In this document: one piece after another, positions 1,507 to 44,092 of the stretch | Position numbering within the stretch: the stretch's first letter is position 1 | Layout of the letters: each line of letters opens with the position of its first letter | Source of the DNA: Candidatus Multivoradales bacterium | GTDB taxonomy: Bacteria > Acidobacteriota > Thermoanaerobaculia > Multivoradales > J023 | Length of the DNA: 64,000 bases | Direction of reading: 5' to 3' | Assembly (NCBI GenBank): GCA_965248925.1 | Contig: CBDFLE010000005.1 | Coordinates: 2,048,001 to 2,112,000, forward strand | Made by a program: the position numbers and the translations under genes | Notes under the pieces: generated by a model | Seen by the model: the letters and a program-made list of their open reading frames with translations, nothing else | What the model was told of the DNA's origin: nothing | The model's database searches: none

Positions 1507-2598
1507 ATGCGTCGAATCTCTGCCAAGAAACAGGGCTCAGAGCCCGCGCGCAAGCCGACCTCCGCGACCCGCCATACCCCCTTCGACCGATCAGCCGCCT
1601 CGGCACCGGACCTGCTCCTGCGCCGGGCCGAGTACCTGGGCCACCACGTCCGGCCAAATCGCCAGAGTCAGGATTCACGGCTACAACGTCAGCCGGTGTA
1701 CCACAAGCCACTTGCCGGTATCGCCAGCGACAAGACCGAGGAACAAGGCCTCAAGCAAGCCAAGCTGATCGACAAGCAAGTCGACAAGGCTTATGAAGAG
1801 TTCATGGGAGGCAACTACAAAGGCGCCAGCGATGCCCAGATTGAACTCTACTTGCTGCGCAAGCATCAGTTAGACAACGGCGAGAAAACGATGCACCCAT
1901 CGACCGCTGCCGGCTATGTGATCGAAGGCAAAGTCAACTCAGTGATCGAATCCTGGAAGGGTGTCAGCACCCAGGTCACCGACGCCCTGCCAGGCACCCG
2001 CCCGGATGTCAGCATCGACCTCGGCGACGGTGTTTTCGCCTTAGTCGACATCACCGCCTCGAACAGCGCCGGACACATCCTAAACAAGAAAGGAAATTGG
2101 CTGAACCATAAGAATATCCCAGTGGTCATCGAGTCGGTCTATCCGAGCATCGATTTCAGCACGATGAAGAAGATCAAACTGTCCGCTGAGCAACTCGAGC
2201 AAGTACATAAGCGAATCGCCGAAGACAAAGAAGCCAAGGCCCTCGCTCAAGCCGAACTCCAGGCGCAGATGGAGCAAGCCCACACTGAGCGCCAGAACGT
2301 GCTGATCAACAAGCTGAGCGAAGCGATGATGGCCTTCAGAGTCCGCAAGCGAGGCAACCGGACCGAGCTTGAGATCAAGAAGAAGGGTCGCACTCAGGCA
2401 CTGTGGAACGCCTGTGGTCTGGTGGTCGAGATCAATACCCGCGCGGGTTTCACCGACCTCGGCTCACCCAAGGAATGGGACGCCCAACGGATCCCTTACG
2501 CAGACTGGATCGATACCGTCGAAGATCGCACCGAATTGCGGAAGAAGGCCGCGCTCCTGCTCGGCGGTCTCAACCGGACACTTCGCCAGCTGAATTGA
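1507..2598 (+). CDS. Putative eCIS cargo/effector with PD-(D/E)xK-like nuclease motif
   Basis: 363 aa ORF; disordered N-terminus with DLLLRRAEYLGHHV...LQR leader shared with two other ORFs in the window; central GYVIE...TRPDVSI...LVDITAS resembles a restriction-endonuclease fold. Confidence 0.55.
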   Translation: MRRISAKKQGSEPARKPTSATRHTPFDRSAASAPDLLLRRAEYLGHHVRPNRQSQDSRLQRQPVYHKPLAGIASDKTEEQGLKQAKLIDKQVDKAYEEFMGGNYKGASDAQIELYLLRKHQLDNGEKTMHPSTAAGYVIEGKVNSVIESWKGVSTQVTDALPGTRPDVSIDLGDGVFALVDITASNSAGHILNKKGNWLNHKNIPVVIESVYPSIDFSTMKKIKLSAEQLEQVHKRIAEDKEAKALAQAELQAQMEQAHTERQNVLINKLSEAMMAFRVRKRGNRTELEIKKKGRTQALWNACGLVVEINTRAGFTDLGSPKEWDAQRIPYADWIDTVEDRTELRKKAALLLGGLNRTLRQLN

Positions 2599-2736
2599 AA
2601 CCGCGCTGACACCTCGAGCCTTCCCCCTGCCAAGCCAACGAAGGTATCTTCGGCCACAATCTGGAGATCTGAGCCCACGAAGTCGCACCGACAACAACGC
2701 TGCCGGCCATCTGATCGGCAATGAAAGGCCGACAGA

Positions 2737-3189
2737 TCAGGTAGTGTTGCCGTCCAACAAACGCACTTGCAAGCTGTCGTCCGCCGGTCGCCGCTGCAGG
2801 ATCTGGCGCATCTTCTGGTCAGCTTGATCGCGACTGGCATAGACGCCGATACGAACAACGTAGAGCACGCTGGCGTCGCCTTGCTCAACTTGCACGATTG
2901 ACGGCGAGAACGATCCCAGCTCACGCTGGCGGGCAGCCGCGTTCTGCCAGTCCGAGTAGGCGCCGGCCTGGATGGTGAAATCACCACTAATCGACGGATC
3001 GAGGCCCGACCAGGCGGCGATCGGCAAAGCCTGTACCGGTGAAGAGCTGGTGGTCTCGGCGGGCAACAAGGTGCGCTCGACATAATGCTGCCCGATCAAG
3101 AAGCCACCGGTGAACAGCACCGCACTGCCCAGCAGCAGGCCTACCGTGACCCTTGCCAAGGATCGCTTGTCGAAGACGAAGGCGTACAT
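2737..3189 (-). CDS. Membrane-anchored SPOR-domain (peptidoglycan-binding) protein
   Basis: N-terminal TM helix VTVGLLLGSAVLFTGGFLIG; C-terminal FTIQAGAYSDWQNA...LYVVRIGVYASRDQA is typical of SPOR. Confidence 0.85.
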   Translation of the reverse strand: MYAFVFDKRSLARVTVGLLLGSAVLFTGGFLIGQHYVERTLLPAETTSSSPVQALPIAAWSGLDPSISGDFTIQAGAYSDWQNAAARQRELGSFSPSIVQVEQGDASVLYVVRIGVYASRDQADQKMRQILQRRPADDSLQVRLLDGNTT

Positions 3190-3635
3190 TCAGGATACTC
3201 GCACTTGGAAAAATCTATCGCTATTTCCCTATATACAGCGAATTCTCCCCACCAGGGAAGATCAGCTAGCGACGGACCGAAAGCCGGTGAAATCAGCGGC
3301 ATAGCACTCCGCGAACTGAACCAACATAGCGCAGCATTGTAGAGCATCTGGCCGCCGACGCCTAATAGACCAGCAACCTTCGCCGTCCCTCACGAGTCTT
3401 ACCGTGGATTCGAGCCTCCCCCGCGGTCCGCTCTCCAACATGAGGATTGAAGCCCGAAGAGTAGATCGAGGAGTCTCAATATCTTGGAGATTGGACCACT
3501 AGAAGTTCTTGAGATACACCTTTAATAGCAAACTCCACTGTGAATGCCAACATATTCGCAACTACCGTCACGCCAAGGGCGCTGTGTAGGTTCTCAGAAG
3601 AATCTACAAAAAAGGCCCAAACACGCTCCATGCCC

Positions 3636-3665
3636 TTGACGAGATTCGTTGCTAAGTAGGATACT
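3636..3665 (+). promoter_or_regulatory. Candidate sigma70-type promoter of the eCIS operon
   Basis: TTGACG (3636-3641), 18-bp spacer, GATACT (3660-3665), ~130 bp upstream of the sheath start; GGAGG RBS precedes ATG 3798. Confidence 0.4.
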
Positions 3666-3691
3666 CGCCCACCTATTCATAGGTAGGCGAG
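3664..3691. promoter_or_regulatory. Inverted repeat (operator or leader hairpin) upstream of the sheath gene
   Basis: CTCGCC-C-ACCTAT-TC-ATAGGT-A-GGCGAG: 13-bp arms with one mismatch. Confidence 0.55.
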
Positions 3692-3797
3692 CAATCCTGA
3701 AGTGCTGGCGAGAGTTCTCGCATAGGCAACTCGGTGGGTGAGACGGGCGGATGGAAACTGGTACTAGGGATCCTCACTAAACGTCTTTGGAGGACCC

Positions 3798-6700
3798 ATG
3801 CCCATCCGAGTCTCGTACCCTGGCGTCTACGTTCAAGAGATTCCCGGCGGCCAGCCGGTCACCGCCGGTGTTTCCACGGCCAGCACTGCTTTTATCGACT
3901 TCTTTTCCCGCGGACCGATGGAAAAGGCCAAGCAGGTGTTCAGCATGGCCGAGGTCAATCGCAGCTTCGGCGGTTTACATTTACGCAGTGAGGCCAGCTA
4001 CGGCCTCAAGCAGTACTTCTTGAACGGCGGCCAGGAGGCCTGGATCGTCCGCGCCACCGACGGCACCGCGATCAAAGCGCTGCTCGACGTCAAGGTCAAC
4101 ACTCCCGGCTTGGATGTCCGCTTTCAATGGGCAACCGATTCCGCCGACGCCGCCGACAAGGCACAGCAGGCCGCGAAGCGCGCCGCCGAAAAGGCCAAAG
4201 ATGCGCTGACCGCGCTGGCGGCCGCGGTGAACGATCAGCAACGCACCCAGGGTGGCGGCGACTTGCGCAGCGCCACCACCGAGTCCGCCGACGAAACCTA
4301 CAAGGCGACCGCCGCCACCCGAGCCGCCGCCGAGCAGGCCAAGGCATCCAGTGACGAGCTGGCCATCGCCATCGCCGCCTTGGCGGCCGCCTCCGGGCCG
4401 GTCGCCGATCGCACCGCCCAAGCCGCCGAGCACACCGCCCAGGCCGCCGCCGCCTCGAGCGATGCCGCCAAGACCACTCCGGCGGTGATCGCCGCCGCCC
4501 AGAAAGCGGTCGAGGTGGCCAAGAAGGGGCTCAGTGCGGGCCAGTCCTCGCGCACCGCGCAAACTGCCGCCAAAACCCTCGCCGACCTGCAAACCGCGGT
4601 CGACGCCGCCAAGGCGGCGATCGCCACGGTTACCGCCGAGGAGACCGCGGTTACCGACGCTGGTGACAACTTGGTCGCTAGCAAGGGTGCCGCTTACAAC
4701 GCCGCGGTCGCCGCCGAGGACGCGGTGGCGCAAGCCGATACCGCTGCTCGCGAAGCATTGAGCGTCGCCAAGACGGTCTACGAGCACCACAAAGCCGCCG
4801 GCAACGACGACGACGCCAAAGCCGCCAAGGAGGATGTCGACGCCGCTAGCGACAGCGAACAAATCACAACCCTGGCGACCGCCGCCAACGCCGCCGCCGA
4901 GGCTCAGCTTGACTCGCAAACGATCATGGAGACGGCCGACGCCACCGCTGCTGCGACCAAGGCCAAAGGCGCCGCGGACCAGGCCAAGTCAGTGATCGAC
5001 AAGGTCGAGACAATCGCCGCCAAGGGTCTCACGTCAGTGCTCACCATGGCCTCCGAGGCCGCCGACACCAGTGCCACGCTGGCGGTGAAAGAGGGTGATG
5101 GCACCGTCGGCGAGGCGGTCAAGGCGGCCAATAAGGAGATCCTCAAGGCCAATGCCGCCGCCAAGGCGGCATTGGTGGCCTGCAAGCTGACCTCCGACGA
5201 CGCTAAGGTCGCGGCCAGCTGCGTCGGCTCGGCAAAGGTCAACCTCGACGCTCGCGGCGCCATCGCCGGAGCCGAGAAAGCCGCCGCCGACACCATCGAG
5301 ACGTTGAAGGCCGCCAAAGTCATCACGGCGCAGCTCAACAAGGCCCTGATCCTTGCGCTCGATTCGACCAAGCCGGCCGTCGAGTCCGCCGCCGCCGCGA
5401 CGGCCGCGGGTGGCAATGCCGACCTCTCGATCAACGAAAAGATAAAGGCCGCGGCGGCTGCCGCCCAAGCGGCGCTCAACGCCGCCAACAACTGCGTCGC
5501 CGCTGCCGAAGCTGTCGAAAAAGCAGCCACCGAAGTGTCGAGAGTCGCTCTTCAGGCGACTACCGCTGCCGACCTGGCGGCACGGGCAGCCAAGGTTGCG
5601 GTCGCCGCCAACAAAGAGGCCAGTCAACCGCCGACCCTGCGCATCGCCGCCGCCAACGAGGGCATCTGGGGCGACAACATCCAGGTCGAGATCAAGGTCG
5701 ACGGGGCTAACTTCTCGCTGGTGGTCACCGAATACCTCACCGAGCGCGGCGTCACCCGCCAGGTGGGACAGGAGAATTACAGCAGCCTCAACCTGGAGAA
5801 GGGCGAGAACACCTACGCCATCCCGGTGGTCAACGACCAGAGCGATCTAGTGTCGCTCGACTACATTGGCCTGATGGTCTCGGGGGCCTACCCCGCCGAC
5901 ATCGATGGCGAGTTCCTCAACGGCGGCGATGATGGCGGCCACGCCGACGCCACCCAGCTGACCGGTGCCGACGGCGCCATGTCGGCGCTTGAGGATATCC
6001 AGCCCTATATCTTCAATCTGCTCAGCCTGCCTTCCGTAGCCAACATGCCGGCCGCCGAGGCCAGCGTGGCCACCGCCAATGCCCAGGTCTACTGCGGCGA
6101 GAAGCGAGCCTTTTACATTGTCGACATTCCGGAAATCGTCGACGATACCGACAAGATGCTCGAATGGGTCAACAGCTACGGCAACGCCCAGGCCTATTAC
6201 ATGGCGGTGTATTACCCTCGGTTGGTGATTCCCGATCCGCTGCAGGACTTCCGAGAACGCAATGTCGGTCCCAGTGGCACTTTGGCCGGCATCTACTCCC
6301 GCACCGACACCGCTCGCGGGGTGTGGAAAGCGCCAGCTGGAATCAACGCCGTGCTGCAAGGTGCCCAGGTGTCGTCCAAGGTCACCGACATTCAGAACGG
6401 GCTGCTCAATCCACGCGGCGTCAATGTGCTGCGGACCTTCCCCATCTACGGCAACATCAGCTGGGGAGCCCGCACACTGGCTGGTGCCGACGCACTGTCG
6501 AGCGAGTGGAAGTACATCAGTGTTCGCCGCTTGGTCAACTACATCGAGGAGAGCCTCTTCCAGAGCCTCAAATGGGCCGTCTTCGAGCCCAACAACGATG
6601 TGCTGTGGGCCAAGATCCGCTCGCAGATCGCCACTTTCCTCTCCAGCTTGTTCTCACAGGGTGCGTTCCAGGGCGCCGGCGAGGGCAGCGCCTACTTCGT

Positions 6701-6836
6701 GACCTGCGACGGCACCACGACCACGCCGGTCGACATCGAACTCGGCATGGTCAATATCGATGTCGGCGTTGCACCGGTCAAGCCGGCGGAATTCGTCGTC
6801 CTCAGAATGCAACAGATCGCTCAGGCCGCCGCCTGA
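3798..6836 (+). CDS. eCIS contractile tail sheath protein with ~500 aa Ala-rich insertion
   Basis: N-terminal YPGVYVQEIPGG...YFLNGGQEAWIVR; C-terminal RTDTARGVWKAPAG, WGARTL, WKYISVRRL, WAVFEPN, APVKPAEFVVLR are sheath signatures. Confidence 0.96.
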   Translation: MPIRVSYPGVYVQEIPGGQPVTAGVSTASTAFIDFFSRGPMEKAKQVFSMAEVNRSFGGLHLRSEASYGLKQYFLNGGQEAWIVRATDGTAIKALLDVKVNTPGLDVRFQWATDSADAADKAQQAAKRAAEKAKDALTALAAAVNDQQRTQGGGDLRSATTESADETYKATAATRAAAEQAKASSDELAIAIAALAAASGPVADRTAQAAEHTAQAAAASSDAAKTTPAVIAAAQKAVEVAKKGLSAGQSSRTAQTAAKTLADLQTAVDAAKAAIATVTAEETAVTDAGDNLVASKGAAYNAAVAAEDAVAQADTAAREALSVAKTVYEHHKAAGNDDDAKAAKEDVDAASDSEQITTLATAANAAAEAQLDSQTIMETADATAAATKAKGAADQAKSVIDKVETIAAKGLTSVLTMASEAADTSATLAVKEGDGTVGEAVKAANKEILKANAAAKAALVACKLTSDDAKVAASCVGSAKVNLDARGAIAGAEKAAADTIETLKAAKVITAQLNKALILALDSTKPAVESAAAATAAGGNADLSINEKIKAAAAAAQAALNAANNCVAAAEAVEKAATEVSRVALQATTAADLAARAAKVAVAANKEASQPPTLRIAAANEGIWGDNIQVEIKVDGANFSLVVTEYLTERGVTRQVGQENYSSLNLEKGENTYAIPVVNDQSDLVSLDYIGLMVSGAYPADIDGEFLNGGDDGGHADATQLTGADGAMSALEDIQPYIFNLLSLPSVANMPAAEASVATANAQVYCGEKRAFYIVDIPEIVDDTDKMLEWVNSYGNAQAYYMAVYYPRLVIPDPLQDFRERNVGPSGTLAGIYSRTDTARGVWKAPAGINAVLQGAQVSSKVTDIQNGLLNPRGVNVLRTFPIYGNISWGARTLAGADALSSEWKYISVRRLVNYIEESLFQSLKWAVFEPNNDVLWAKIRSQIATFLSSLFSQGAFQGAGEGSAYFVTCDGTTTTPVDIELGMVNIDVGVAPVKPAEFVVLRMQQIAQAAA

Positions 6837-6870
6837 TCTCGGATCCAAGAAAACCAAGGAGGTTTTATCA

Positions 6871-7455
6871 ATGGGTACTCCCAAGAACCTACGTTCGACC
6901 ATCATGGATCCGCTGCTGAACTTCAAGTTCATTGTCAGCTGGGGCGAGGCCGGTTCGGCGAAATACGAAGTAGTCGCCGGGGTGAGCAAGTTCGGCCCGC
7001 TGTCGCGCAACACGGAAGTTGCCGAATACCGCGAAGGTGCCGATCCCTTTGTCACTCGTAAGATCCCAGGGCAGGTGAAATACGACGACATCAACCTCGA
7101 GCGCGGCATTATTCTCGATGTCGCCTTCGAGCAGTGGGCCAATAAGGTTTGGTACTACGAGCAGTCCGACGCCCTGGCCTCCAACCAGGTGTCGCTGATC
7201 GACTTCCGCAAGGACGTGCAGATTCAGCTCTGCAACCAGGCCGGCCAGATCGTCAACCAATACCTGATCTTCAATTGTTGGCCCACCAAATACCAGGCGG
7301 CGCCCGATCTCGACGCTTCGGCTGGCAACACGGTGGCGCTCGAAACCTTGACCTTGGCCAACGAAGGCTGGGTCCGTGACGACACCTACAAGGCCGTCAA
7401 GTATCCGACCTACGCCTTGCCGGATTCGCCAACAGGTGGCTTGCCACCCTCCTGA
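6871..7455 (+). CDS. eCIS tail tube protein (gp19/Afp1-like)
   Basis: DPLLNFKFIV, EYREG, RKIPGQVKYDDINLERG, CWPTKY...LDA...VALETLTLANEG; start reassigned to ATG 6871 behind AAGGAGG. Confidence 0.95.
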   Translation: MGTPKNLRSTIMDPLLNFKFIVSWGEAGSAKYEVVAGVSKFGPLSRNTEVAEYREGADPFVTRKIPGQVKYDDINLERGIILDVAFEQWANKVWYYEQSDALASNQVSLIDFRKDVQIQLCNQAGQIVNQYLIFNCWPTKYQAAPDLDASAGNTVALETLTLANEGWVRDDTYKAVKYPTYALPDSPTGGLPPS

Positions 7456-7460
7456 TCCAT

Positions 7461-8207
7461 ATGCACGCCCTCACCGCCCAAGAAGCGCTGGCGGCTTGGG
7501 AAAGAGGCCAGCGACTCGACCCTCTGGGCCGATCGCTGGCCTTTCTTTCGGTCGCCCTGCCGGCCGTCGAGCGCCTACGCATTCTGCAGCTGCCGGTAGG
7601 GCAGCGCGACGCTCTGCTACTGCGCTTGCGTTTCCGCACTTTTGGGCCGGGTCTGCGAGGTTCGGTCAACTGTCCATCCTGCAACGTACCGCTGGAGTTC
7701 GCAGTCGATCTGCGTAGCTACGACGCGATCGGCCACCTACAACGAGAGATCGGCGCCCGCGAGCTGGTCGTCGAGCCCTACCGAGTGGTCTTCCGCCTAC
7801 CCAACAGTGAGGACTTTTCCGCCATCGCCGAGGGCTGCGTCGACGCCGAGAGTGGCCGCGAAGTCCTGCTCGACCGCTGCCTGCTGCACGCCTTCGAAGG
7901 CAATCAGGAAATCGCGCCGCAGCAGCTCCCCGCCGAAGTTTTGGCTCAGGTCGCCGCTGAAATGGAGAGTCTCGATCCTCTCGCCGAGCTACCGTTGGCG
8001 ATCGATTGCGGCCGTTGCGATCACTCCTCCCTGGTGCTCTTCGACATCGGCCAGTTTCTTTGGCATGACATAGCCGCCTCCGCCAGAAGCCTGCTCGAAG
8101 AAGTCCACGCCTTGGCCACCGCCTACGGCTGGGGCGAAGAGCAGATTCTCAACCTGAGCGGGGCGCGCCGCCGCTTTTACATCGAAAAGATCCCAGCCGG
8201 GAGCTGA
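7461..8207 (+). CDS. eCIS baseplate hub-assembly/chaperone-like protein (T4 gp26-like, two CxxC)
   Basis: LPVGQRDALLLRLR, CPSC, FRLPNSED, CGRC, C-terminal EVHALATAYGWGEEQILNLSGARRRFY; usual position after the tube gene. Confidence 0.8.
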   Translation: MHALTAQEALAAWERGQRLDPLGRSLAFLSVALPAVERLRILQLPVGQRDALLLRLRFRTFGPGLRGSVNCPSCNVPLEFAVDLRSYDAIGHLQREIGARELVVEPYRVVFRLPNSEDFSAIAEGCVDAESGREVLLDRCLLHAFEGNQEIAPQQLPAEVLAQVAAEMESLDPLAELPLAIDCGRCDHSSLVLFDIGQFLWHDIAASARSLLEEVHALATAYGWGEEQILNLSGARRRFYIEKIPAGS

Positions 8208-8212
8208 AAGCA

Positions 8213-14625
<6,413 letters not shown>

Positions 14626-14629
<4 letters not shown>

Positions 14630-15921
14630 GCGACTATCGAGCCATCGCGGCTACCACCGTCACGCTGCAAAACATGCTTACCGAAGCGATTCGCGAGGTG
14701 GTGCCCGGAGCCGCTGTCGCCACCGGCACACCGCCCGCGAAGACCGGTCATGAACTCACCGAGGGGCTGATCAATATCTTCCTCTACAAGGTCGAACCCA
14801 ACCCGACTTGGCGCAACGAGGAATTGCCGGTACGCGCCGCCGACGGCAGCTGGATCCGCCGGCCGCAACTGGCGATCAACTTGTTCTTCTTGTTGTCGTT
14901 CTATGGCGATGACGTGAAGCAGATCCCTTCCCTGTTACTCGGTACAACTCTGGCGACCCTGCATGCAGAACCCTATCCCCACCGGCGGCATTTCCCCCAA
15001 GCACGCCCAGACGGTCCAGGGCACAGCAGCTTTATCGACGGCAGTCCCAACCTGGCGGGCTCTGGGCTGCTCAACCAACGCCACGGCCTGTCGTTTTCCT
15101 TGCTGTCCTCCGAGCAAGACGAAGTCATCCAGACCTGGACGCAGCTGCTGCACCAGTCCTACACCCTGTCGGTAGCCTATGTCGCTCGGGTGGTGTTGAT
15201 CGAGCCGGCGGTGGTGCCAGCCGCGGCGTTGCCGGCGCGCCGCACCGATGTTCGCTTTAGCAGCACGCGACAACCGCGCCTAGAGAGCCTGGCTCCAGCC
15301 ATCTTGCCTTTCGCCCCCGCCGCCGAACTGCGGCTGCGCGGCCAAGGACTGACCGCCGAGCATGTGCGAGTCGCTTTCGGCGGCATCGAAGTCGAACCCC
15401 TGATGCGCTCAGCGACCGAGCTGCGAGTGCTGCTCCCAGACCAGCTGCAAGCCGGCGCGCAACCGGTCAACGTGGTCCACGGCGAACAACGGGACGATGG
15501 CCCGCTGCGTTGGAGCATCGCCTCCAATCAACTTTCGGTGGTCATCCAACCAGTGCTGCTGGGGGCCGCTTGGCGAGCCCAGACTTCCGACCCGGCCCCC
15601 ACCACCACCACGGGCTCCACCAGGACTAGCGGCACCATCGAAGTGCAGATGGCGCCGCCAGCCACCGCCCCGACTGATGTCGAGCTACTGCTCAACGCCA
15701 CCCCACCCTCCAACCGCGCGGCAGCACCGCCGGGCTATGTTTTCGCAGCCACGGTCGACCCGTCCCGCCCCGATCGAGTCGACTTCGTGGTGACCGCACC
15801 CCCGGGCCGCTATCTGGCGCGTATCAGGGTGCTCGGCGCAGACAGCCCTTTGACCGTCGACAAAGATCCGTCAAGTCCGAATTACCAACGCTTTGTGGGC
15901 CCCATCGTGGAAATCGGCTGA
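14626..15921 (+). CDS. DUF4255 / Pvc16-Afp16-like cap (sheath terminator) protein with IPT-like C-terminal domains
   Basis: MSDYRAIAATTVTLQNML, INIFLYKVEPNPTWRN, YTLSVAYVARVVLIE; located before the ATPase. Confidence 0.88.
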
Positions 15922-17900
15922 TGGCGGACCTATTCACCAGCATCTTGACCGAGGTTCGCTCGGCGCTTCAGCGACACGCCGAGAACGCGCCCTCGGAGAG
16001 CACCGAAACAGCTGCCGCAGACACCGCCGCAAACACAACTCCGGCACCAGCCACAAGCGCCGACGACAGTCAAGTTTCGAGGTTGCGGCAGCTCAGCCAG
16101 CTGTTCGAACTATCTGACTTCGAAGTGCGTGTGCTGGTGCTCTGTGCCGGCCTCGAGCTGGACTCCTCTTTCGCACCACTCTGCGCCAAGGCACAGGTCG
16201 ACCCTAAACGCGCCTACCCTACTTTCGGCCTCGCCATGGCGACTCTGCCGGGAGCGCAATGGCAAGCTCTGCTGCCACAAGCACCGCTGCGCGCCTGGCA
16301 GCTGTTGCGACCCGCCACCGGCGAACCCCTGACCGCCGCCGAGCTGCGTATCGACGAACAGATCCTGCACTACCTTATGGGTTTCGACAGCCAGCCCAAG
16401 GCCCTGGCGCCGCTGATCGAACCGGTGCTAGAGGATCAGCTCGACCTGGTGGCATCGCACCGGCGGCAGGCTGATTTGATCATCTCCACCTGGCGCCAGA
16501 CCCGGGGCAGTAGCGAGTTTCCGGTGGTCGAGCTGCGGGGCGACAACCACGCCGCCAAACGGCCGATTGCCGCCTTGGCCTGCCAACAACTCGACCTGCG
16601 CCTGCAGGCCATCGCCGCCGAATCTCTACCCACTCAGCCCGAGGAACTTGAATCCCTGCTCCGCCTGTGGCACCGCGAAGCACTGCTCGATGGCGCAGCT
16701 CTGCTGGTCGAAGCCGACCAGCTACGACCCGACGATGCCCGCGAGCCGGTGCTGCGCAGCTTTCTCGACCGCAGCCGCACCGCCATGCTGGTTACCCGCC
16801 GCGGTCGCCTGGCCCTCCGCCACCGAGCACTACTCAGCCTTCCAGTCGAGAAGCCCCAACGGCAGGAACAACGCAGCCTTTGGCAGCGCCTGGGAGAAGC
16901 CCGTGGGATCTCACTCGACCCTCAGCAGCGCGTCGCCTTGGCCGATCAATTTCACCTCGGTGCGAAGGAGATTCGCAGCATCTGGGTCGAGGCCCTCGGC
17001 CGGCTACCGAGCGACGGCGAGACTATCGATCAACAGCAGCTGGTGGCAGCGCTGTGGCAAACATGCCGCCAACAGGCACGGCCGGCCCTGGAGGATCTCG
17101 CCGAACATGTAGAACCCAAGGCTACTTGGGACGAGCTGGTGCTGCCCGAGCCGCAGCTCCAGACCCTGCGCCAGATCTCCATTCACTTGCGCCAACGAAG
17201 CACCGTGCACGACAGTTGGGGCTTCTCCAGCAAGAGTTCGCGTGGCCTCGGAATTCATGCTCTGTTCAGCGGCTCCAGCGGCACCGGCAAAACGATGGCC
17301 GCCGAAGTGCTGGCTGGCGACCTCGGCCTCGATCTGTTCCGCATCGACCTGTCGTCGGTGATCAGCAAATACATTGGCGAAACCGAAAAGAACCTCGAGC
17401 GGGTCTTCACCGCCGCCGAAGCCGGCGGTAGCATCTTGCTGTTCGACGAAGCCGACGCCCTCTTCGGTCGCCGCGGCGAGGTCAGCGACAGCCACGACCG
17501 CTATGCCAACATCGAAGTCAGCTACCTGCTGCAACGCATCGAGACCTATCGCGGACTGGCCATCTTGACCACCAACTTGCGCGGCTCCCTGGACAGCGCT
17601 TTTCAGCGGCGGCTCGAATTCATCGTCGAATTCCCCTTTCCGACCCCAGTCGAGCGGGCGGCTATCTGGGCTAGGGTATTCCCCGCCAAAACGCCGACAG
17701 ACAACCTGCATCTTGATCGCCTGGCGCGACTCAACTTGAGCGGAGGCCATATCCGAAATATTGCCCTGAATGGCGCTTTTCTGGCCGCCAAAGACTGCGC
17801 TCCTGTTAACATGAAGCATCTGCTGATTGCCACCCGTCGGGAACTGGCCAAATTGAACCGGCCGCTGCCTGAGACCGAAGTCCAGGATTGGTTGACATGA
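15921..17900 (+). CDS. eCIS AAA+ ATPase (Afp15/Pvc15-like)
   Basis: Walker A GSSGTGKT, SKYIGETEKNL, Walker B LLFDEADALFG, DRYANIEVSYLLQR. Confidence 0.96.
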   Translation: MADLFTSILTEVRSALQRHAENAPSESTETAAADTAANTTPAPATSADDSQVSRLRQLSQLFELSDFEVRVLVLCAGLELDSSFAPLCAKAQVDPKRAYPTFGLAMATLPGAQWQALLPQAPLRAWQLLRPATGEPLTAAELRIDEQILHYLMGFDSQPKALAPLIEPVLEDQLDLVASHRRQADLIISTWRQTRGSSEFPVVELRGDNHAAKRPIAALACQQLDLRLQAIAAESLPTQPEELESLLRLWHREALLDGAALLVEADQLRPDDAREPVLRSFLDRSRTAMLVTRRGRLALRHRALLSLPVEKPQRQEQRSLWQRLGEARGISLDPQQRVALADQFHLGAKEIRSIWVEALGRLPSDGETIDQQQLVAALWQTCRQQARPALEDLAEHVEPKATWDELVLPEPQLQTLRQISIHLRQRSTVHDSWGFSSKSSRGLGIHALFSGSSGTGKTMAAEVLAGDLGLDLFRIDLSSVISKYIGETEKNLERVFTAAEAGGSILLFDEADALFGRRGEVSDSHDRYANIEVSYLLQRIETYRGLAILTTNLRGSLDSAFQRRLEFIVEFPFPTPVERAAIWARVFPAKTPTDNLHLDRLARLNLSGGHIRNIALNGAFLAAKDCAPVNMKHLLIATRRELAKLNRPLPETEVQDWLT

Positions 17901-18223
17901 AAATCGATCTAGAAATCGACCACTTGCGCCTTCCGACCGCCGCCGGCTTGCGCGGCGAGGATCTGGCCACCGCTATCGAGAGCGAGCTCGACCGGCTGAG
18001 CGAAATCTACGGTTTGCCCGCTTATGGTAGCAATGCAGGCGGGGTCGATATTGACCTGGCGTCGTTCCCGATCAACCCTCACGCTTCCATCGACCAACTC
18101 GGCGCCTCGATCGCCCGCTCGCTGATGCAGGGTTTGCATCAGAAGAGCGGCCGGGTTCCGCGAGAACTCGACAGAGGCCCTGACGCGCCCCACGATACTT
18201 CCTCCAACGAGGTAGTGCGATGA
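17897..18223 (+). CDS. Small eCIS-associated hypothetical protein
   Basis: MKIDLEIDHLRL...AIESELDRL...LGASIARSL; ATGA overlaps on both sides. Confidence 0.7.
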   Translation: MKIDLEIDHLRLPTAAGLRGEDLATAIESELDRLSEIYGLPAYGSNAGGVDIDLASFPINPHASIDQLGASIARSLMQGLHQKSGRVPRELDRGPDAPHDTSSNEVVR

Positions 18224-18918
18224 GCGCCAGCGGCACCTCCACTTATCCGCCGGTGTTGCCGAAGGTCGCCCAGCGGCCGACTCCCTACAATCTGCAAAAA
18301 CGTTTCAAAGGAGCGCTGGTTTCGGTCACCAAGACCGGTAAGAAAACCACTGTACCTTTCCAATACAACCCGGCCAAACTCGACCGCACTTTGACCCCGC
18401 GAATGTACGACGGCCCCGAGGGCCAAGCCCAATTCGTGGGCGGCGCCAGTCAATCGATCTCCGTCACCGTCGAGCTGCAAGCGGTTGACACTATGGTGGC
18501 GCAGTCAAAGAAGAACAAGCTAGCCAACGCGGCCAAGGGGCTCTACGCCCACCTTGCTGCCCTCGAACTACTGCTCTACCCGGCGACCAAGGATATCGAA
18601 ACCTATCGCAACGACTTGGACAACAACGTCAAGGGCGCGGTACCGCCGCAAGCGCGACCGACACTGTTTGTTTGGGGTCCCCAGCGAGTCCTGCCGGTGA
18701 ACCTGAAGTCGATGGTGGTCAAGGAAATCCTCTTTAACATCGCGCTAAGCCCGGTGCGCGCCGAGGTCACTCTAACCATGAATGTCGAGAACGTGATCGA
18801 CACCGAGGGCGATTCCTACCAATTGCTGTTGGCCCATCTCAAGAACATGGAACAAATGCGCCAAACCCAGGGGGCCGAGGTCTTCGGTAGCAACAAGATC
18901 ACCGGAGCCCAGTACTGA
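18220..18918 (+). CDS. CIS tube-initiator-like protein (Afp7 N-terminal-like)
   Basis: VPFQYNPAKLDRTL, LAALELLLYP, PTLFVWGPQRVLPV, PVRAEVTLTM. Confidence 0.85.
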   Translation: MSASGTSTYPPVLPKVAQRPTPYNLQKRFKGALVSVTKTGKKTTVPFQYNPAKLDRTLTPRMYDGPEGQAQFVGGASQSISVTVELQAVDTMVAQSKKNKLANAAKGLYAHLAALELLLYPATKDIETYRNDLDNNVKGAVPPQARPTLFVWGPQRVLPVNLKSMVVKEILFNIALSPVRAEVTLTMNVENVIDTEGDSYQLLLAHLKNMEQMRQTQGAEVFGSNKITGAQY

Positions 18919-18936
18919 GTCTAAGAGCCAATAAAG

Positions 18937-19212
18937 ATGATCAAGAAATCTAGTCGCTACCACGGCTTCGACCACCATCGGCATCTAACTCCCGGTGGTC
19001 ATGAGATCCTCTATCTCGAACGTCGCTTCATTCCGCGATTGCAGACCTCCGGCAAGACCACCAACGCTCAAAGCGAACGCCTCGACCTGATCGCCGATAG
19101 AACCTTGGGCAATCCGCAGCTCTACTGGCGCCTCTGCGACGCCAACGAGGAGACCAATCCGTTCGTGCTCTCCGAACGATCCGGGCGCACCCTCAAGCTA
19201 CCCAACCTATGA
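18937..19212 (+). CDS. LysM/tail-X-like baseplate protein
   Basis: SSRY...YLERRFIP...ERLDLIADRTLGNPQLYWRLCDAN. Confidence 0.85.
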   Translation: MIKKSSRYHGFDHHRHLTPGGHEILYLERRFIPRLQTSGKTTNAQSERLDLIADRTLGNPQLYWRLCDANEETNPFVLSERSGRTLKLPNL

Positions 19213-19225
19213 GCGGCAACCCTCC

Positions 19226-20416: not shown

Positions 20417-20425
20417 GAATCACCA

Positions 20426-21277: not shown

Positions 21278-21285
21278 CGAGGACG

Positions 21286-21678
21286 ATGGTGAAGAGCAGC
21301 GATCTCGAGGTAGGTTTTCCGTTCCAGCTCGACACCCGTGGCCGGGCCTTCGATCCGGGCTACGAGGATCACGTCAAGCAATTGATCGAGCTGGTGTTGT
21401 TCACCACCCCCGGCGAGCGGGTCAACCGGCCAGATTTTGGCTGCGGTCTGCTGGAGCTGGTGTTCTCCCCGGAAACCGAGCAGGAAACCACCGTCACCCG
21501 GCATTTGGTGCAAGCGTCGCTGCAACGCTGGCTCGCCGAAGTGATCTCGGTGCGGGAAGTTGAAATCGATGTTAACGACACTAGACTCAATATCCGCATT
21601 GCATACCAACTGATCGACTTCGAAAATCAAGAGCAAGTAGCGACCTTCGAGTTTCGGGACCTGCCATGGGAGATCTGA
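21286..21678 (+). CDS. gp25/GPW baseplate wedge protein (Afp9-like)
   Basis: GFPF...LFTTPGERVNRPDFGCGL. Confidence 0.94.
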   Translation: MVKSSDLEVGFPFQLDTRGRAFDPGYEDHVKQLIELVLFTTPGERVNRPDFGCGLLELVFSPETEQETTVTRHLVQASLQRWLAEVISVREVEIDVNDTRLNIRIAYQLIDFENQEQVATFEFRDLPWEI

Positions 21679-24266: not shown

Positions 24267-27200
24267 GGGAGCAGCAACCACCGCCCCTCCCCGCCGCGGC
24301 CACCGCGCCGAGCCCCGACTCGCGGTTGGCTAACCCACCAGGGCAGCGTCAGCTGATTCACCGCATCGGCGACTACTACAGCTTCTACGACTCCATGTTG
24401 CACTGCCTGGCCCGCCAGGGCCGGCATCCGTTGACCACCACCGTGCCTTGGGTTGAAGACGCCGAGGACCAAAAAACTCGTGCCGAGCAGCCCCGCAGCG
24501 TCCTTGGCGAACAACGCACCGCCACTGGCAAGGGCCGCATCTGGCTCAACCTGTCGCAGGCCGACAATTGGATCCTCGGCTTACTCAGGTCGTGGGCGAC
24601 GATCGGCGAGATTCTCGCTTTCTATCAAGAGCGGCTGATCAACGAAGGCTACTTGCGCACCGCCCGCGAGCGGCGTTCGGTACACGAGCTGGCGCGATTG
24701 CTCGACTACCGGCCGCGGCCGGCGGTGGCCGGTGCCACCGAGTTGGCCTTCGACACCACCGATGTCGAGGGCTTGCCGCGAGACATCGCACTGGTCGCCA
24801 GCACCCCGGTCGACAGTGTGCCCCCCGAGGGCGCCGAACCGCAGAGCTTCGAGACCTCCGGCCCACTAGTGGCCCGCGCCGACTGGAATCGGCTGGGGGA
24901 AGCCGCGCCGGCTCGCCCCCTACCCTTGGAACTTGACAACGGCGCCAACCGCCTAGGTCTAGCCAACCAAGCGCGGTGGCCCGATATCGGTTCGGGGATA
25001 CTGATCCGCGGCCGGCAAAACAACGAGGAGCGCCTCTTCTACCGCCCGGTCGCGGCGCTCGAAGATCCCGCCGCGAAGCTTCCGGGCAAGGATCTGGTGT
25101 GGAGCGAGGCCGTCGAACTACAGCCCGCGGAACCGCCTCTCGGCGACCTAGAGGTCTACGCCCTGCGCCAAGAGCTGCGCCTCTTCGGCTATGCCGCGCC
25201 ACTGTGGCCAGAGCAATCGCTCGCAGTGCGCCGCCGCTATCGCGACCTGCAAGGCGGCTTGCGGGTGCTCCAAGACGGTAGCTGGCGCGCGACCCACGGC
25301 AGTCTGCCGGAGGCCGAAATCCGCTGCCTGGTCTACAGCCCCGACGGACACCTCTTCGCCGGCACCAGCGGCCAAGGCATCTGGCGCCTGAGCGCGGGTG
25401 AGAAAAGCTGGCAAGGTCCCTCCCGTGGTCTCGAATTGGGCGACATCTGCGCTCTGACCGCCACCGACGACGGCTTGCTGATCGCCGGCACGGCAACCGG
25501 CGGAGTTTTTCACTCGACCGACGGCGGCGATGTTTGGACCCAACTCACCGGCCGCGCCCTGGGCCGCGCCCGCTGGACCCTGGTGCGCCGTTCGCGACGC
25601 CTCGACAGCTTGCCGCAGACGCCGGTGCGAGCCCTCCTATCACTGCCCACCGGCGAGGGCGCTGCCAAAGGCGCCTGGCTCTTCGCCGGCACCGACAGCG
25701 GCCTCTACCGTTCGACCGACCTGGCCAACACCTGGATGCCGTCCAACCGCGGCTTCCCGGCAGTCGACTCGGGCACCGGCGAGACGTCGACCGCGGTCAC
25801 CGCCCTGATCGTCAATCCGCTCAGCGGCGAACTCTTCGCCGCCACTTCCGCTGGCGTCTTCTCCTCCACCGACCGCGGTCGGCGTTGGCAGGCGATCAAT
25901 CTTGGTCTGCCGGAGATGGATCTGTTCAGCGAGCTGCTACCGCGGGGAGTGCGCGACTTGGCCTTGCACTACGATCGGCGGCGGCGGACTTCGACCCTCT
26001 TCGCGGCCACCACCCAGGGAATCTACCGCTCCCGCGACCGCGGCAACAACTGGCAGCTGGCCAGCAGTGGGCTCGAGATCGAGCGTGACGAGCTGCCCGA
26101 GATCACCTGCCTGGCCCTGGAGCGCAACAAAGTCACCGTCACCTCTCGCCTCTTCGCCGCCACTGCTGAACGGGTCTGGTGCTCACTTGACGAAGGGGAG
26201 AGCTGGCGGCCGGCGTCCCTCGACGCCTTACCCGGCGGCCGCGCGCTGGCGGCCAGCAGCAGCCGCGCGACGCTGGCCGCGGCTACCCCTTTCGGCGGTT
26301 TCGCCAACAATCAATGGCCGAACTTCTTTCTCTCCCGCGGCCACATCGATCTGGAACGTGAAATCCCTGCCCTGCCCGCCGACGGCTGGGTGATCCTGGT
26401 GCCCGATGCTGACCAACCGCAACCACCACCGGTGGGCATCTTCCCGCTGCTCAAGGTCAGCACCGTGCGGCGCACCGACTTCACCCTCAACACCAAGATC
26501 ACCCGCCTGCAAGTAGACCCCGACCCGGCTTTGCGGCGCTACGATCTGCGCCGCACCCGAGTGCTTGTGCATAGCGAACCGCTTCTGCTGCAGACGGGTA
26601 ACCGGGTCGATCCCAGAGACACCCTGGCCGCCCTCTGCGCCAGGCTCCGGCAGATGCCCGCCGATCGGCCAATCCTGGCTTGCGCCCTGCACTCTCCGGG
26701 CAACCATGACTCGCCAGTGCACGAAGCGGCGCAGAGCCGCGCCGAGCCGCTGGCAAACCAGGCCGCCTGGCAGTATCTTTCGAGCTCCGCCGCGCAGCTG
26801 TTGGCATCTCTGGAGAAGAGTGCCCAGACCGGCTTATTAACCCTCGCCAGCGAGCCCACCAGTAGCGCCAAGGCAGGTCAAGCGGTCGCCGTTTCGAGCG
26901 ATTCGCTGCAAGTCTTCGCCAACGTCATAAACGCCACCGAAGGGGTCACCATCCACCGCGAGGTGCTGGGCAGCGGCAACGCCGCGCAAACCCTGCAACA
27001 GTTCCCGTTAGTCGAGATACCAGCCTTTCTGCGCGGCTCGCCGGATCCCCGATCGACGGTCGAGATCCGGGTCGGCGATCAGCGCTGGAGAGAGGTGCCA
27101 AGGCTCCTCGATCAACCGCCTGAGCGCCGGGTCTATGAGCTGCGCCGCGATCACCAGGGCTTCGCCACCGTAGTCTTTGGCGATGGTGCCCACGGCGCCC

Positions 27201-35594: not shown

Positions 35595-37588
35595 CCAGAT
35601 CGGCTGACCCAGCGCCAACCCTCCGGCAGTCGTACCTCTTGGTCTAGTCGGGCAGCTGAGATCTGCCGCCGAGTGGCACCGATGACTTGGCGCAGATCAG
35701 CACCGCGTAAGTCGGCGCCGCTGAAGTCCGCGCCTTCGAGATCCGCACCCTCCAGGTTGCAGCCACGCAGGTCGGCACCGCGTAGGTCGCAGCGGCGCAA
35801 GCGCACCCGGCGTAGACCAGCACCCTGCAAGTAGGCGCCCGCTAGATTGGCTACTTCCAGGTTGGCGTCGTCGAGGCTGCCAGCGCGCAGATCCGTGCCG
35901 CTCAGATCGCAGTTGAACAGCACCGCCCGACTCAGGTTGGCGCCGCGCAGACACGCGCCCGCCAACCGCGCACCACTAAGCTCTGTTCTAGACAGGTCAG
36001 CGCTACTCAAGTCTGCGTCTTCCAGGCGGCTGGCTCCCAATTCCGCACCGCTCAAACGAGTGCCAACCAGGCTGGCGCGGCGCAGATCGACACGCATCAT
36101 CACCGCCGAGCCCATCTCGGCGCCATCGAGCTTCGCCCCTACCAGATTGGCGGCGGTAAAGTCGGCCCGCAACGCCCGCGCGCCGCGCAGATCGGCGCCG
36201 CTCACTTCGGCCAGGTACAGCCGGGCGTCGGAGAGGTCGGCGCCAGCAAATGAGACATTCTCGAGCACCGCCCAGCTCAGCTCCGCGCCCCGCAAGTCCG
36301 CGTTCTTCATATCGGCGTCCACCGCGACCGCCCCCACCAGGTGAGCGGCTCGCAGGTCAGCACCGCCGAACGCCACTCGTTCGAGCTTGGCTCCGGTCAG
36401 CCGAATAGCGCGCAGATCAGCACCACGGAACAGCGCTCCACTAAGCTCCTTGGCCGACAGATCGAGGCCACGTAGATCGGCGGCGCTGAAGTCTCCGCCA
36501 GCCAGGTGGGCGGCGCCGAGATTCTGCACCTGGCGTAGATCGACCTCGCGCAAATCGGCCCCAACGAGTTCAGCGGCGGCCAGGTCAGCGCCGGCCAGGT
36601 CGGCGGCGCCATCGCAGTCGGCACAGTCAACTCGACACTCGGGGGCACGGTCACACTCAAGGGGGCCGAGGGAGGCACCGGCCAGGCATACGCCCCGAAG
36701 GTCGGCGTAGCGAAGGTCGGCGGCGCTCAGCTTGGCTTGCCACAGATTGGCACCCGCCAAGAGTGCGTGGCGCAGGCTGGCGCGCTCGAGGTTGGCCCCC
36801 GCTAGCTCGCTATTGCGCAGATGCGCCTGGTCCATGCGGGCGGCGGTGAGGCTCACCCCCGGCAGATGGGCCTCGGCAAGACTGACATGGCGCAGGTCGC
36901 ACGCTGCCAGAATCGTGGCCTCACCAGCTACTTCGTCAAGATCGGCCCGGCATAGATCAGCCCTGGTGAAGTCTGTTCCAGCGAGCTTGGCACCGTGAAG
37001 ATTGGCTCGCTCGAGCCTCCCATCGCGAAATACGGCATCCCGCAGCTGCGCATCGGCGAGTTGAGCTTCTTCCAGCACCGCCGCATCGAGCCGAGCCGCG
37101 GTTAGATCGGCCCGCACCAAGCTGGCACGGCTCAGGTCGGCCTCCTCTAGCCGTGCCGAGCGCAGCTCCGCGCGATCAAGGCTAGCCTCGCCAAGCCGCG
37201 CCTGGCGCAAGTCGGCACCATTGAGTTTGGCTTGGCGCAAATCAACCTGACGCAGGTCGGCACCGCGCAGCTGCGCATCGGTGAAATCAGTTTCGCGCAG
37301 CCGCGCTTGGCGCAGGCCGACGCCAGCGAGCTGTGCTTGCTGGCCTTGAGCGCCCGTCAGGTCAGAACCGCTCAACCGCGCCTGGCGCAAGTTGGCGTCA
37401 GACAGCCTCGCGCCTCGTAGATCGGCGCGGTAGAGGTCGACCTCGCGACCATCGAAGTCTTCGAAATCGATGCCGACTAACGAGGCATGGCGCTGCGCCC
37501 GCTGCTCAAGGTCCGGCCGGTCAAGTCTTAGAAACGTGGGTTCGCTATCGTCGGATTCGACAGCAGTCGTGCTGGGGGTCGTGCTCAT
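35591..37588 (-). CDS. Long pentapeptide-repeat protein
   Basis: 665 aa made almost entirely of A(D/N/R)LxG/x repeats. Confidence 0.93.
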   Translation of the reverse strand: MSTTPSTTAVESDDSEPTFLRLDRPDLEQRAQRHASLVGIDFEDFDGREVDLYRADLRGARLSDANLRQARLSGSDLTGAQGQQAQLAGVGLRQARLRETDFTDAQLRGADLRQVDLRQAKLNGADLRQARLGEASLDRAELRSARLEEADLSRASLVRADLTAARLDAAVLEEAQLADAQLRDAVFRDGRLERANLHGAKLAGTDFTRADLCRADLDEVAGEATILAACDLRHVSLAEAHLPGVSLTAARMDQAHLRNSELAGANLERASLRHALLAGANLWQAKLSAADLRYADLRGVCLAGASLGPLECDRAPECRVDCADCDGAADLAGADLAAAELVGADLREVDLRQVQNLGAAHLAGGDFSAADLRGLDLSAKELSGALFRGADLRAIRLTGAKLERVAFGGADLRAAHLVGAVAVDADMKNADLRGAELSWAVLENVSFAGADLSDARLYLAEVSGADLRGARALRADFTAANLVGAKLDGAEMGSAVMMRVDLRRASLVGTRLSGAELGASRLEDADLSSADLSRTELSGARLAGACLRGANLSRAVLFNCDLSGTDLRAGSLDDANLEVANLAGAYLQGAGLRRVRLRRCDLRGADLRGCNLEGADLEGADFSGADLRGADLRQVIGATRRQISAARLDQEVRLPEGWRWVSRSG

Positions 37589-37603
37589 CAGCGACCGCCG
37601 CGA

Positions 37604-38293
37604 TCAAGGCTCGCGTACCTTCGCCCCGTTTTGCTGCACCACATGGGTGAGTTCGTGGGCCAGCAACTGCTGGCCACTGGCAGAACCGGGACGATACTCG
37701 CCCTGGCGAAAGAAGATGTCCTGACCGGTGGTGAAGGCTCGCGCTTCGAGCGAGCGGTTGAGCTGATCGGCCTTGCCATCGGCATGGACCTTGACGCCGC
37801 TGAAGTCGGCGCCGAAGGCTGACTCCATCGAGGAACGCAGGGGAACATCGAGCGCCCGGCCGCCGCTACGCTGGCTGTCGATCGAGGATTCGAGGCTACT
37901 GTCGATGGCTCCGCCTGCTTGCAAGGAGGAGGCACGTTGCAAATACTTCGGCTGGGCGGTGGCGGCCGGGGCGTCGCTAATCTCCGCCTCTTCGACCGCC
38001 GGCGCAGCCAGGCTGGTCATCACTTGCTGCGCCACCTGATCGGCTTCGCGCTCGTAGGCGTCGGCGGCCGGGCCAAGGGTTAGCTTGGGCTGGATGGTGC
38101 CCCTGTCGACCCGCAGCCGGTGGCCGAGCACCTTGGCGCGGGCCAACTGCAGATCGATGTCCGCCGCCGTCCGCTCCGCCAGCGGCCGCGGTGCCAGCGG
38201 CCGCGGTGCCACCCGAGTCGGGCCGGACGGAGCCAGCGTGGACTGATCCTTGCTGCCTGTGACTCGATTTTGCCCTAGTCGATCTGTTCGCAT
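37604..38293 (-). CDS. DUF4157 (eCIS core domain) protein
   Basis: IQPKLTLG..DAYEREADQVA, MESAFGADFSGVKVH, ARAFTTGQDIFF, LLAHELTHVVQQ (HExxH); start reassigned to ATG 38293 with GAGGA RBS. Confidence 0.93.
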   Translation of the reverse strand: MRTDRLGQNRVTGSKDQSTLAPSGPTRVAPRPLAPRPLAERTAADIDLQLARAKVLGHRLRVDRGTIQPKLTLGPAADAYEREADQVAQQVMTSLAAPAVEEAEISDAPAATAQPKYLQRASSLQAGGAIDSSLESSIDSQRSGGRALDVPLRSSMESAFGADFSGVKVHADGKADQLNRSLEARAFTTGQDIFFRQGEYRPGSASGQQLLAHELTHVVQQNGAKVREP

Positions 38294-38792: not shown

Positions 38793-38801
38793 GAGCCGGT
38801 C

Positions 38802-44032: not shown

Positions 44033-44092
44033 CCCCAATACTCCGAATGTCCGGCCCGGACTTGAAGACTTCGCACGAGTTTCAACAAACTC

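Follow-up and report, generated by a model that had tools for sequence, protein, structure and literature searches.

An Afp/PVC-like contractile injection system is encoded in the genome of a Candidatus Multivoradales bacterium (GCA_965248925.1; 8.0 Mb, 62% GC; labelled G000), and three open reading frames (ORFs) that flank it share a short N-terminal motif, here called the LGH leader, which probably marks proteins for loading into that system. The stretch analysed, called the window, comprises 64,000 nt of contig CBDFLE010000005.1 (positions 2,048,001-2,112,000; G000:C5), and coordinates given below without a contig name count from its first nucleotide. The motif is specific, lies at the N-terminus, is conserved at the protein level and is linked to one lineage of injection systems. 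Taking the comparisons together we would put at about 0.6 the probability that it is a lineage-specific N-terminal loading tag of the adjacent system, read by the AAA+ ATPase encoded at 15921-17900.

A leader shared by three genes beside the injection system

ORF A (1507-2598, + strand, 363 aa), directly upstream of the injection-system genes, carries the core leader DLLLRRAEYLGHHV at aa 35-48 (1609-1650, +) with LQR 10 residues further on, and ORF B (34950-35594, + strand, 214 aa), downstream of those genes, carries DDLLQRVRLLGHRI at aa 39-52 (35064-35105, +) with VQR after 7 residues; both were delimited by ORF and translation and are candidate cargos. ORF C (37604-38293, − strand, 229 aa from the Met at 38293) has DLQLARAKVLGHRL at aa 47-60 (38114-38155, −) with IQP after 6 residues, then IQPKLTLGPAADAYEREAD and a C-terminal DUF4157 domain. 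The common pattern is D-x-x-L-x-R-[AV]-x-x-L-G-H-[HR]-[VIL], followed 6-10 residues on by [LIV]Q[RP], and the glycine of LGH is residue 45 in A, 49 in B and 57 in C. A preliminary description of this DNA had reported these ORFs, motifs, positions and spacings, and re-translation and a pattern scan reproduced all of them.

Only C belongs to a known family, matching PF13699 (eCIS_core/DUF4157; eCIS, extracellular contractile injection system) with 113.5 bits against a cut-off of 22 (E 5.4e-33) and retaining HELTH. A and B match no Pfam family, and PF13699 gave nothing for them up to E 0.01. Since both are without the domain the leader is independent of DUF4157, as had been proposed. Third-position GC content favours the frame taken for B (0.70 against 0.61 for the shadow ORF). 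The basic N-terminus described ahead of the motif is there in all three proteins, the first 35 aa being hydrophilic (mean Kyte-Doolittle −0.89 to −1.27) and the net charge before the motif +4 to +6; over the leaders as a whole the corresponding values are −0.88 to −1.30 and +1 to +8. Inspection of the N-termini of A, B and C showed no hydrophobic run of the kind that would make a Sec-type core. In AF2 single-sequence models, which are poor as a whole (pLDDT 41 for A and 43 for B), the values stay below 50 throughout aa 1-82 in A and aa 1-68 in B. The divergence claimed outside the leaders holds nearly throughout, in that BLASTP among A, B and C aligns the leaders and, beyond them, one 24-residue match between A and B (E 0.043).

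Specificity within the genome is high. In 15,961,154 six-frame residues the exact pattern occurs three times, at A, B and C, all within 37 kb. Because that pattern was drawn from the three proteins themselves, less circular profile tests were added, with decoys for comparison. A 22-residue profile scores A, B and C at 38.9-43.3 bits and the next-best ORF at 13.2, and across profiles these three reach 39-60 bits against about 15 bits or below for decoys. With a profile made from the leaders of four DUF4157 proteins only (C and its relatives P0004, P0005 and a homologue in genome G004), A ranks first of 92,946 other ORFs at 14.8 bits, the decoy maxima being 12.7 and 11.5. At the DNA level the 14 leader codons of A, B and C have 19-26 of 42 bases in common, with synonymous differences, so that what is conserved is the protein and not a DNA repeat. 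Across nine leaders with diverged flanks, R, L, G and H are invariant.

Outside the leader A and B have few relatives. A word-index search and the 23 genomes of the same family gave no homologue of B, for which a protein atlas supplied leads only (unnamed clusters at 0.93, a cluster at 0.92 with 26% T4SS_Ceg10 members and transglutaminase-like clusters at 0.89). For A the atlas held nothing usable (0.82), and a PDB sequence search returned one chance-level match. A binding prediction for the B leader (aa 1-75) with an alignment of the AAA+ ATPase gave a score of 0.01 (mark 0.32), from which no inference is drawn.

Dispersed carriers in the same genome

The leader also heads proteins encoded elsewhere. 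Profile A3 was built from seven leaders, none from contig C6, and its best matches after A, B and C are two proteins of that contig: D (691 aa, 18.2 bits), which carries ALDRRIQRAELLGHRW, and E (712 aa, L095:9887-12025, 16.2 bits), which carries LEARIQRAQLLGHRV followed by TVQR. Decoy maxima for this profile were 15.2 bits with reversed and 13.0 with shuffled ORFs. The LGH glycine is at aa 80 in D and aa 54 in E, and RIQRA[EQ]LLGHR is common to the two. D has a PG_binding_1 domain, for which a PDB search matches PG-binding domains, and a C-terminal HEYTH motif; E finds no family in Pfam (E up to 0.1) or the PDB (E up to 1), and neither protein matches PF13699 up to E 0.1. A further candidate, F (421 aa), has a fitting architecture, with LDQRLRRATALGYRI, then ARVQR, and the LGH-site glycine at aa 62, and shows no PF13699 match up to E 0.01. 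All best pairwise BLASTP matches among A-F fall within the leaders. As had been anticipated, the leader does point to dispersed candidates, namely D and E elsewhere in this genome, carriers in two related genomes (below) and, weakly, F; among D, E and F a recognisable domain is present in D only.

E ends in a hydrophobic stretch and contains a segment, MNCFLRC, that we take to resemble the motif of OTU-type cysteine proteases, a resemblance that no family match backs. Two other matches on contig C6 were set aside. One, a fourth weak match to the leader (C6:3699439-3698939, a 167-aa frame), has no clear start and is probably non-coding. The other, a second match to PF13699 (C6:3644501-3644731, 25.5 bits; L002), falls towards the C-terminus of a YD-repeat (RHS-type) protein that has no leader, and DUF4157 in the toxin position of an RHS-type protein is an arrangement noted by Zhang et al. 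2012 (PMC3482391; this and the other papers cited are drawn on for the part of their text that was accessible). The same contig holds an identical 63-aa open frame at least 8 times (for example 537317-537505 and 3352019-3352207), which would be a dispersed repeat or insertion element.

Relatives and range of the leader

Of the 23 family genomes G006 alone has a homologue of A (G006:C90; 34% identity over aa 34-235, E 9.3e-17), which retains the leader (FDQRIARAECLGHRPV, with AVQRS further on). Its neighbours are a SPOR gene on one side and a long sheath gene on the other, the same arrangement as in the window, where a SPOR gene on the opposite strand lies between ORF A and the sheath gene. Relatives of C that keep the leader are P0004, P0005, the gene on G004:C56 and four metagenome genes closely related to P0005, and the leader is kept in orthologues from two other genera. 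With profile A4, made from nine leaders and used across the family genomes, G006 yields two more N-terminal carriers (per-genome E 5e-4 and 3.6e-3), a 671-aa ORF with LEKRHQRAQLLGHRLE that is a partial homologue of D (33% over 157 aa) with the motif kept, and a 548-aa ORF with DGRLRRAELLGHRF. G004 has, besides its C homologue, one more carrier (LGTRLRRSELLGHGM, E 0.014). PF13699 has no match in G006, a genome that is 81% complete. The remaining 21 of the 23 genomes give 0 or 1 weak match each, and among the 8 of these matches inspected none is leader-like at an N-terminus, except possibly that in G018.

The two genomes with extra carriers are also those with the closest family orthologues of the window's ATPase, at 60% identity in G004 and at 64% and 47%, in two pieces, in G006. 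A wider tracking of leader type with ATPase similarity was tried and abandoned, the pattern being unclean: G008:C235 (ATPase 51%) has ERADRLGHSF before DUF4157, and G003:C664 (52%) has no such leader.

Elsewhere the leader is rare. Among 1.84 billion representative proteins the profile found its own sequences only (5 matches, E up to 0.001). In the phylum sample of 400 genomes (401 searched) 21 other genomes gave matches at E 2e-4 to 0.01, and all 24 loci inspected were off-frame or internal. No LGH-type leader appeared in 79 DUF4157 genome loci from many phyla (best 8.8 bits), and in 80 metagenome loci LGH scores were confined to the four close relatives of P0005. When the leader alignment, C aa 1-110 and B were each used as query in word-index searches, nothing came up but the window proteins and P0004, P0005 and P0006. 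So narrow a range points to a system-specific tag and not to a general one, and agrees with the published view that loading sequences are system-specific. The profile scan of the genome and its relatives, which had been suggested as a check, thus finds carriers that are N-terminal and tied to the lineage of this system, with D, E and F nonetheless unlinked to it.

A different leader in the same position in other phyla

From the 79 loci 118 DUF4157 ORFs were taken, 113 of them having 60 or more residues ahead of the domain, and 47 of the 113 contain another motif, the GN motif (consensus PADVLQLQRTIGNQAVGRLLQQ, LQRTIGNQAVxRLL). The stretch that precedes the domain in C (IQPKLTLGP..D.YE.EAD) is widely shared, with its QxKL anchor in 82 and its YExEAD in 85 of the 113. 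Measured back from the Q of the anchor, the GN-class glycine is 9-15 residues away in 26 of the 33 ORFs that allowed the measurement, and its median distance from the first Met is 59 residues; for the LGH-class glycine the interval is 11-13 residues and the position aa 46-57. The two leaders are alike in standing some 40-80 residues from the start and 9-15 before the QxKL anchor, in heading DUF4157-less neighbours as well, and in a common shape, L-Q/x-R followed by hydrophobic-G-[N/H]-x-hydrophobic. They differ in the spacing from R to G, which is two residues longer in LGH, and in the N that GN has where LGH has H. Alignment of the two profiles with hhalign gave a probability of 0.9% over 4 aligned columns, and G000 itself has no GN-type leader (best 11.9 bits, in an off-frame ORF).

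In the 79 loci the GN motif also heads 10 ORFs without DUF4157, N-terminally and with scores of 13-29 bits, the best decoy reaching 8.9; they include one Colicin-DNase/WHH protein and one Peptidase_M15_4 protein. By a simple phmmer test injection-system core genes lie within the fetched flanks at 7 of the 9 loci of these carriers and at 49 of the 79 loci overall. In the 80 metagenome loci 11 of 60 GN matches are in ORFs without DUF4157. Leader, optional DUF4157 and variable C-terminus are, as far as these sequences go, a general architecture of which the window holds a private leader variant.

A third leader type, with FF motifs (PFFS, FFQ) upstream of the QxKL anchor, was seen in 16 of the 113 ORFs, at 10 loci (L128-L206) mostly from Bacteroidota and Cyanobacteria. 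Three DUF4157 proteins of Cyanobacteria and Anaerolineae (L135, L167, L189) show the pattern hydrophobic-G-H-x-hydrophobic around residues 50-60 (LSQAAQLGHQLGQV is one instance); these could be distant cousins of the LGH leader, and score below noise with its profile.

Probable loading and its likely reader

The signals by which contractile injection systems choose their cargo are described as disordered, system-specific and without conserved sequence, and cargo is for that reason predicted from gene position, DUF4157 or bulk physico-chemical features. Loading in AlgoCIS requires both the AAA+ protein Alg15 and the disordered N-terminal domain that precedes DUF4157, DUF4157 itself is dispensable, and the accessible part of the preprint describes the loading sequence as not conserved between systems (bioRxiv 10.64898/2026.05.27.728243). 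The PVC signal peptides depend on the Pvc15 ATPase (PMC11495950). No specific conserved sequence among signals was detected according to the available text of Danov 2024, and in that of Evans and Waterfield homology among signal peptides is rare, although groups exist.

The LGH leaders fit this picture in most respects. Like the AlgoCIS cargos Cgo1 and Cgo2 of Algoriphagus machipongonensis (PMC8894135) they form a disordered N-terminal segment before an optional DUF4157 domain, are similar within one system and not between systems, and occur beside an AAA+ ATPase; ORF C has the same order of segment and domain. In AlgoCIS, however, both cargos have DUF4157, whereas two of the three linked carriers here, and the dispersed ones, are without it, and here a short searchable motif can be defined; the likeness to the Cgo leaders is one of description. 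The PVC and Afp leaders (Pnf, Pdp1, Cif, Afp18) are likewise hydrophilic, positively charged and confined to the N-terminal 20-70 residues of unrelated effectors without DUF4157 (PMC11495950, PMC11297309), and they fall into sequence groups with Pvc15-dependent loading; compared again by description, they differ in that their effectors lie directly downstream of the operon, whereas the LGH motif is sharply defined and is found on one carrier upstream of the sheath gene and on dispersed ones. The traits published for eCIS signals, namely a hydrophilic, positively charged N-terminus with no hydrophobic core, are found in the leaders too (Danov 2024). By its PF13699 match ORF C is a member of the polymorphic toxins with a DUF4157/PVC-metallopeptidase domain, which have constant N-terminal and variable C-terminal parts (PMC3482391, PMC8213781). 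In the accessible text of those papers the peptidase domain serves as the unvarying marker; in this genome the constant element, common to C and to A, B, D and E, is instead the leader, which in C precedes that domain. In sum of position, the leaders stand at the N-termini of unrelated carriers beside an eCIS with a Pvc15-type ATPase and resemble one another within that system only.

N-terminal cargo markers are familiar also from type VI secretion systems (T6SS), where MIX, FIX and RIX stand on polymorphic cargo effectors and have been useful for finding dispersed ones; these are folded domains of classical T6SS in Proteobacteria. By contrast, what the LGH carriers have in common is short, a motif within a disordered leader, and the neighbouring system is of Afp/PVC type; a Pfam search of A and B gives no homology to them.

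In the mechanism favoured here a basic, hydrophilic segment of about 35-70 residues would run into a probable short helix, L-x-R-A-x-x-L-G-H-x-hydrophobic, and then [LIV]Q[RP]. Proteins bearing this leader would be marked out for the adjacent phage-tail-like contractile injection system to load, and the system's own AAA+ ATPase (15921-17900, + strand; Pvc15/Alg15-type by its Pfam AAA and winged-helix domains) would be the leader's likeliest reader, unfolding the tagged protein and feeding the tube. The leader may act with or without DUF4157, ORF C being the leader-plus-DUF4157 form and A, B, D and E leader-plus-other-domain forms that could have arisen through recombination of the kind usual among polymorphic toxins; A, B, E and F would then be putative effectors. 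That the leader is a loading tag is suggested by the experiments on the AlgoCIS N-terminal domain and on the PVC signal peptides.

A sharp tag of this kind names the residues worth mutating in loading tests, L-G-H here and G-N in other lineages, and searching with it finds cargo candidates away from the operon, two to three extra ones here, one with a peptidoglycan-binding domain. The comparisons argue that the leader and not DUF4157 is the module common to the cargos, in agreement with the AlgoCIS deletion data, and if such tags are functional the repertoire of each system would be readable from its genome. A broader idea, which we hold tentatively and at somewhat less than even odds, is that sequence tags in disordered N-termini are an address code for Pvc15-type AAA+ unfoldases of DUF4157-lineage systems in many phyla, with LxRAxxLGHxV here and the GN motif in many Chloroflexota, Cyanobacteria, Acidobacteriota, Proteobacteria and others as examples. 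Membership of the cargo set would then be decided by the tag, not by DUF4157, and a profile search with a system's own tag could list its full repertoire, also where genes lie far from the operon, which would contradict the prevailing view that conserved loading sequences do not exist.

The concept of an N-terminal signal independent of DUF4157 is already in print for PVC, Afp and AlgoCIS; the sequence-defined tags, LGH and GN, appear to be new. Neither motif was found in the text searched of the eCIS and DUF4157 literature, with the limit that alignments in Evans and Waterfield (fig S3), the PROCIS preprint (Extended Data Figs 3 and 7) and Danov (Dataset EV1) may bear on this. The literal strings IGNQAV, GNQAVQRLL and LQRTIGN are absent from the literature text searched, and LGHRL occurs there in unrelated papers only.

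Several points weigh against a loading tag. The functional support comes from AlgoCIS and PVC and none of it from this organism. D and E exceed the decoys by merely 1-3 bits, and with the DUF4157-only profile they score 12.3 and 12.1, the level of the decoys (12.7), while B falls outside the top nine of that profile. F, at 13.3 bits and with LGY instead of LGH, lies within noise and so stays a candidate. D, E and F are far from the injection system, amid unrelated genes, and with a domain recognised in D alone the effector status of A, B, E and F is that of candidates. Among the DUF4157-less GN carriers at least 2 (L259, L283) are cut by contig ends, beyond which the domain could lie, and given the hhalign result the kinship of GN and LGH is claimed as positional equivalence alone. 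The co-occurrence of extra carriers with close ATPase orthologues rests on two related genomes and is suggestive, with no statistical test.

Other roles for the leader

A protease site is one other way to read the motif. The leader would be the propeptide junction at which the DUF4157 zinc peptidase recognises or cleaves its substrate, acting in cis within C itself and in trans for A, B, D and E, and a short fixed motif at a fixed distance from the QxKL anchor suits such a site, as does the position of C, a protein with DUF4157 as its only domain and an intact HELTH, beside leader-bearing genes. Release of toxins by autoproteolysis has been proposed for this peptidase (Zhang et al. 2012, PMC3482391), and action in cis or trans is discussed by Danov 2024. 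AlgoCIS speaks the other way, because there cargo without DUF4157 is loaded and cargo without the N-terminal domain is not (bioRxiv 10.64898/2026.05.27.728243), and growth inhibition by Cgo1 is independent of the metalloprotease motifs (PMC8894135); G006 moreover carries leaders and yet, at its 81% completeness, no PF13699 match. As the sole role of the leader cleavage is thus considered unlikely, although the protease-site and loading roles could coexist. An equally unlikely account makes the leader a relic of shared ancestry, a module spread between toxin genes, or gives it a different task, for instance as the docking site for an immunity protein or chaperone or in the control of protein turnover. 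Polymorphic toxins do exchange modules (Zhang et al. 2012, PMC3482391), PVC signal peptides influence cargo stability too (PMC11495950), and D, E and F are unlinked to an injection system. A relic is however hard to square with R, L, G and H invariant in nine leaders whose flanks and codons have diverged, with a strictly N-terminal position, and with preservation of the motif in orthologues from two other genera.

It is rather improbable that the leader targets a PAAR spike or a membrane-anchored, T6SS-like route in the manner of MIX, FIX and RIX, and not the tube lumen via the ATPase. PAAR, DotU-like and IcmF-like genes are indeed at hand: ORF C is divergent from the PAAR gene and adjoins the IcmF-related_N and DotU genes, and in G004 the homologue of C neighbours an IcmF-like gene, the closest ATPase being on another contig. 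But A and its G006 homologue are at the sheath end, away from the PAAR and IcmF genes, AAA, sheath and tube genes are present at loci of the parallel GN leader, and Pfam detects no T6SS marker domain in A or B. Least credible of all is a chance match of short Arg/Leu-rich segments in a GC-rich genome. Weak LGH-like matches are common enough in GC-rich six-frame translations, as the 21 genomes of the phylum search attest, yet three exact matches in 37 kb with zero elsewhere in 16 million residues, scores of 39-60 bits and retention in orthologues contradict chance for A, B and C; for F chance is possible. A loading tag read by the system's ATPase is therefore the reading that we prefer.

The injection-system locus and neighbouring genes

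The structural block of the Afp/PVC-like system occupies 3798-33601 (+ strand) and by Pfam contains genes for sheath, gp19-type tube, Pvc16_N, the AAA+ ATPase with its winged-helix domain, tube-like and gpD proteins, a VgrG-like OB domain, gp25, gp6-like, Baseplate_J-like and P2_I-like proteins and a DUF6519/Kelch fibre candidate. Its Pvc16_N locus is the single copy in G000. The sheath protein (3798-6836) is 1012 aa long with its match to the sheath model limited to the last ~100 residues, the rest being mostly alanine-rich low-complexity sequence, and the sheath homologue in G006 (L090:16751-19999) reaches at least 1083 aa. A 2138-aa ORF (8213-14629), placed between the tube/baseplate-like genes and Pvc16_N, has no real Pfam match and a strong AT skew and may be an unusually long tape-measure protein. 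The fibre candidate (30152-33601) combines DUF6519, a Kelch beta-propeller and a weak match to Laminin_G_3.

Beyond the block, a 665-aa protein (35591-37588, − strand) of pentapeptide/decapeptide repeats begins 15 nt past the stop of ORF C; no leader was detected in it, and it may be a partner of C or a cargo using C in trans. A PAAR protein (38406-38792, + strand; PF05488, E 5.2e-20) is divergent from ORF C, and IcmF-related_N (TssM-like, 1505 aa) and DotU (TssL-like) genes, assigned by Pfam, adjoin the cargo region (38802-44038, − strand). With a TIG-repeat protein and a FadL-like outer-membrane protein they make up a group at 38406-48227 directly beside the Afp/PVC-type system, and the DUF4157 gene of G004:C56 likewise adjoins an IcmF-like gene; the injection system may be membrane-anchored instead of released. 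A UPF0175/DUF3368 pair at 33765-34542, between the last structural gene and ORF B, is presumably a toxin-antitoxin module.

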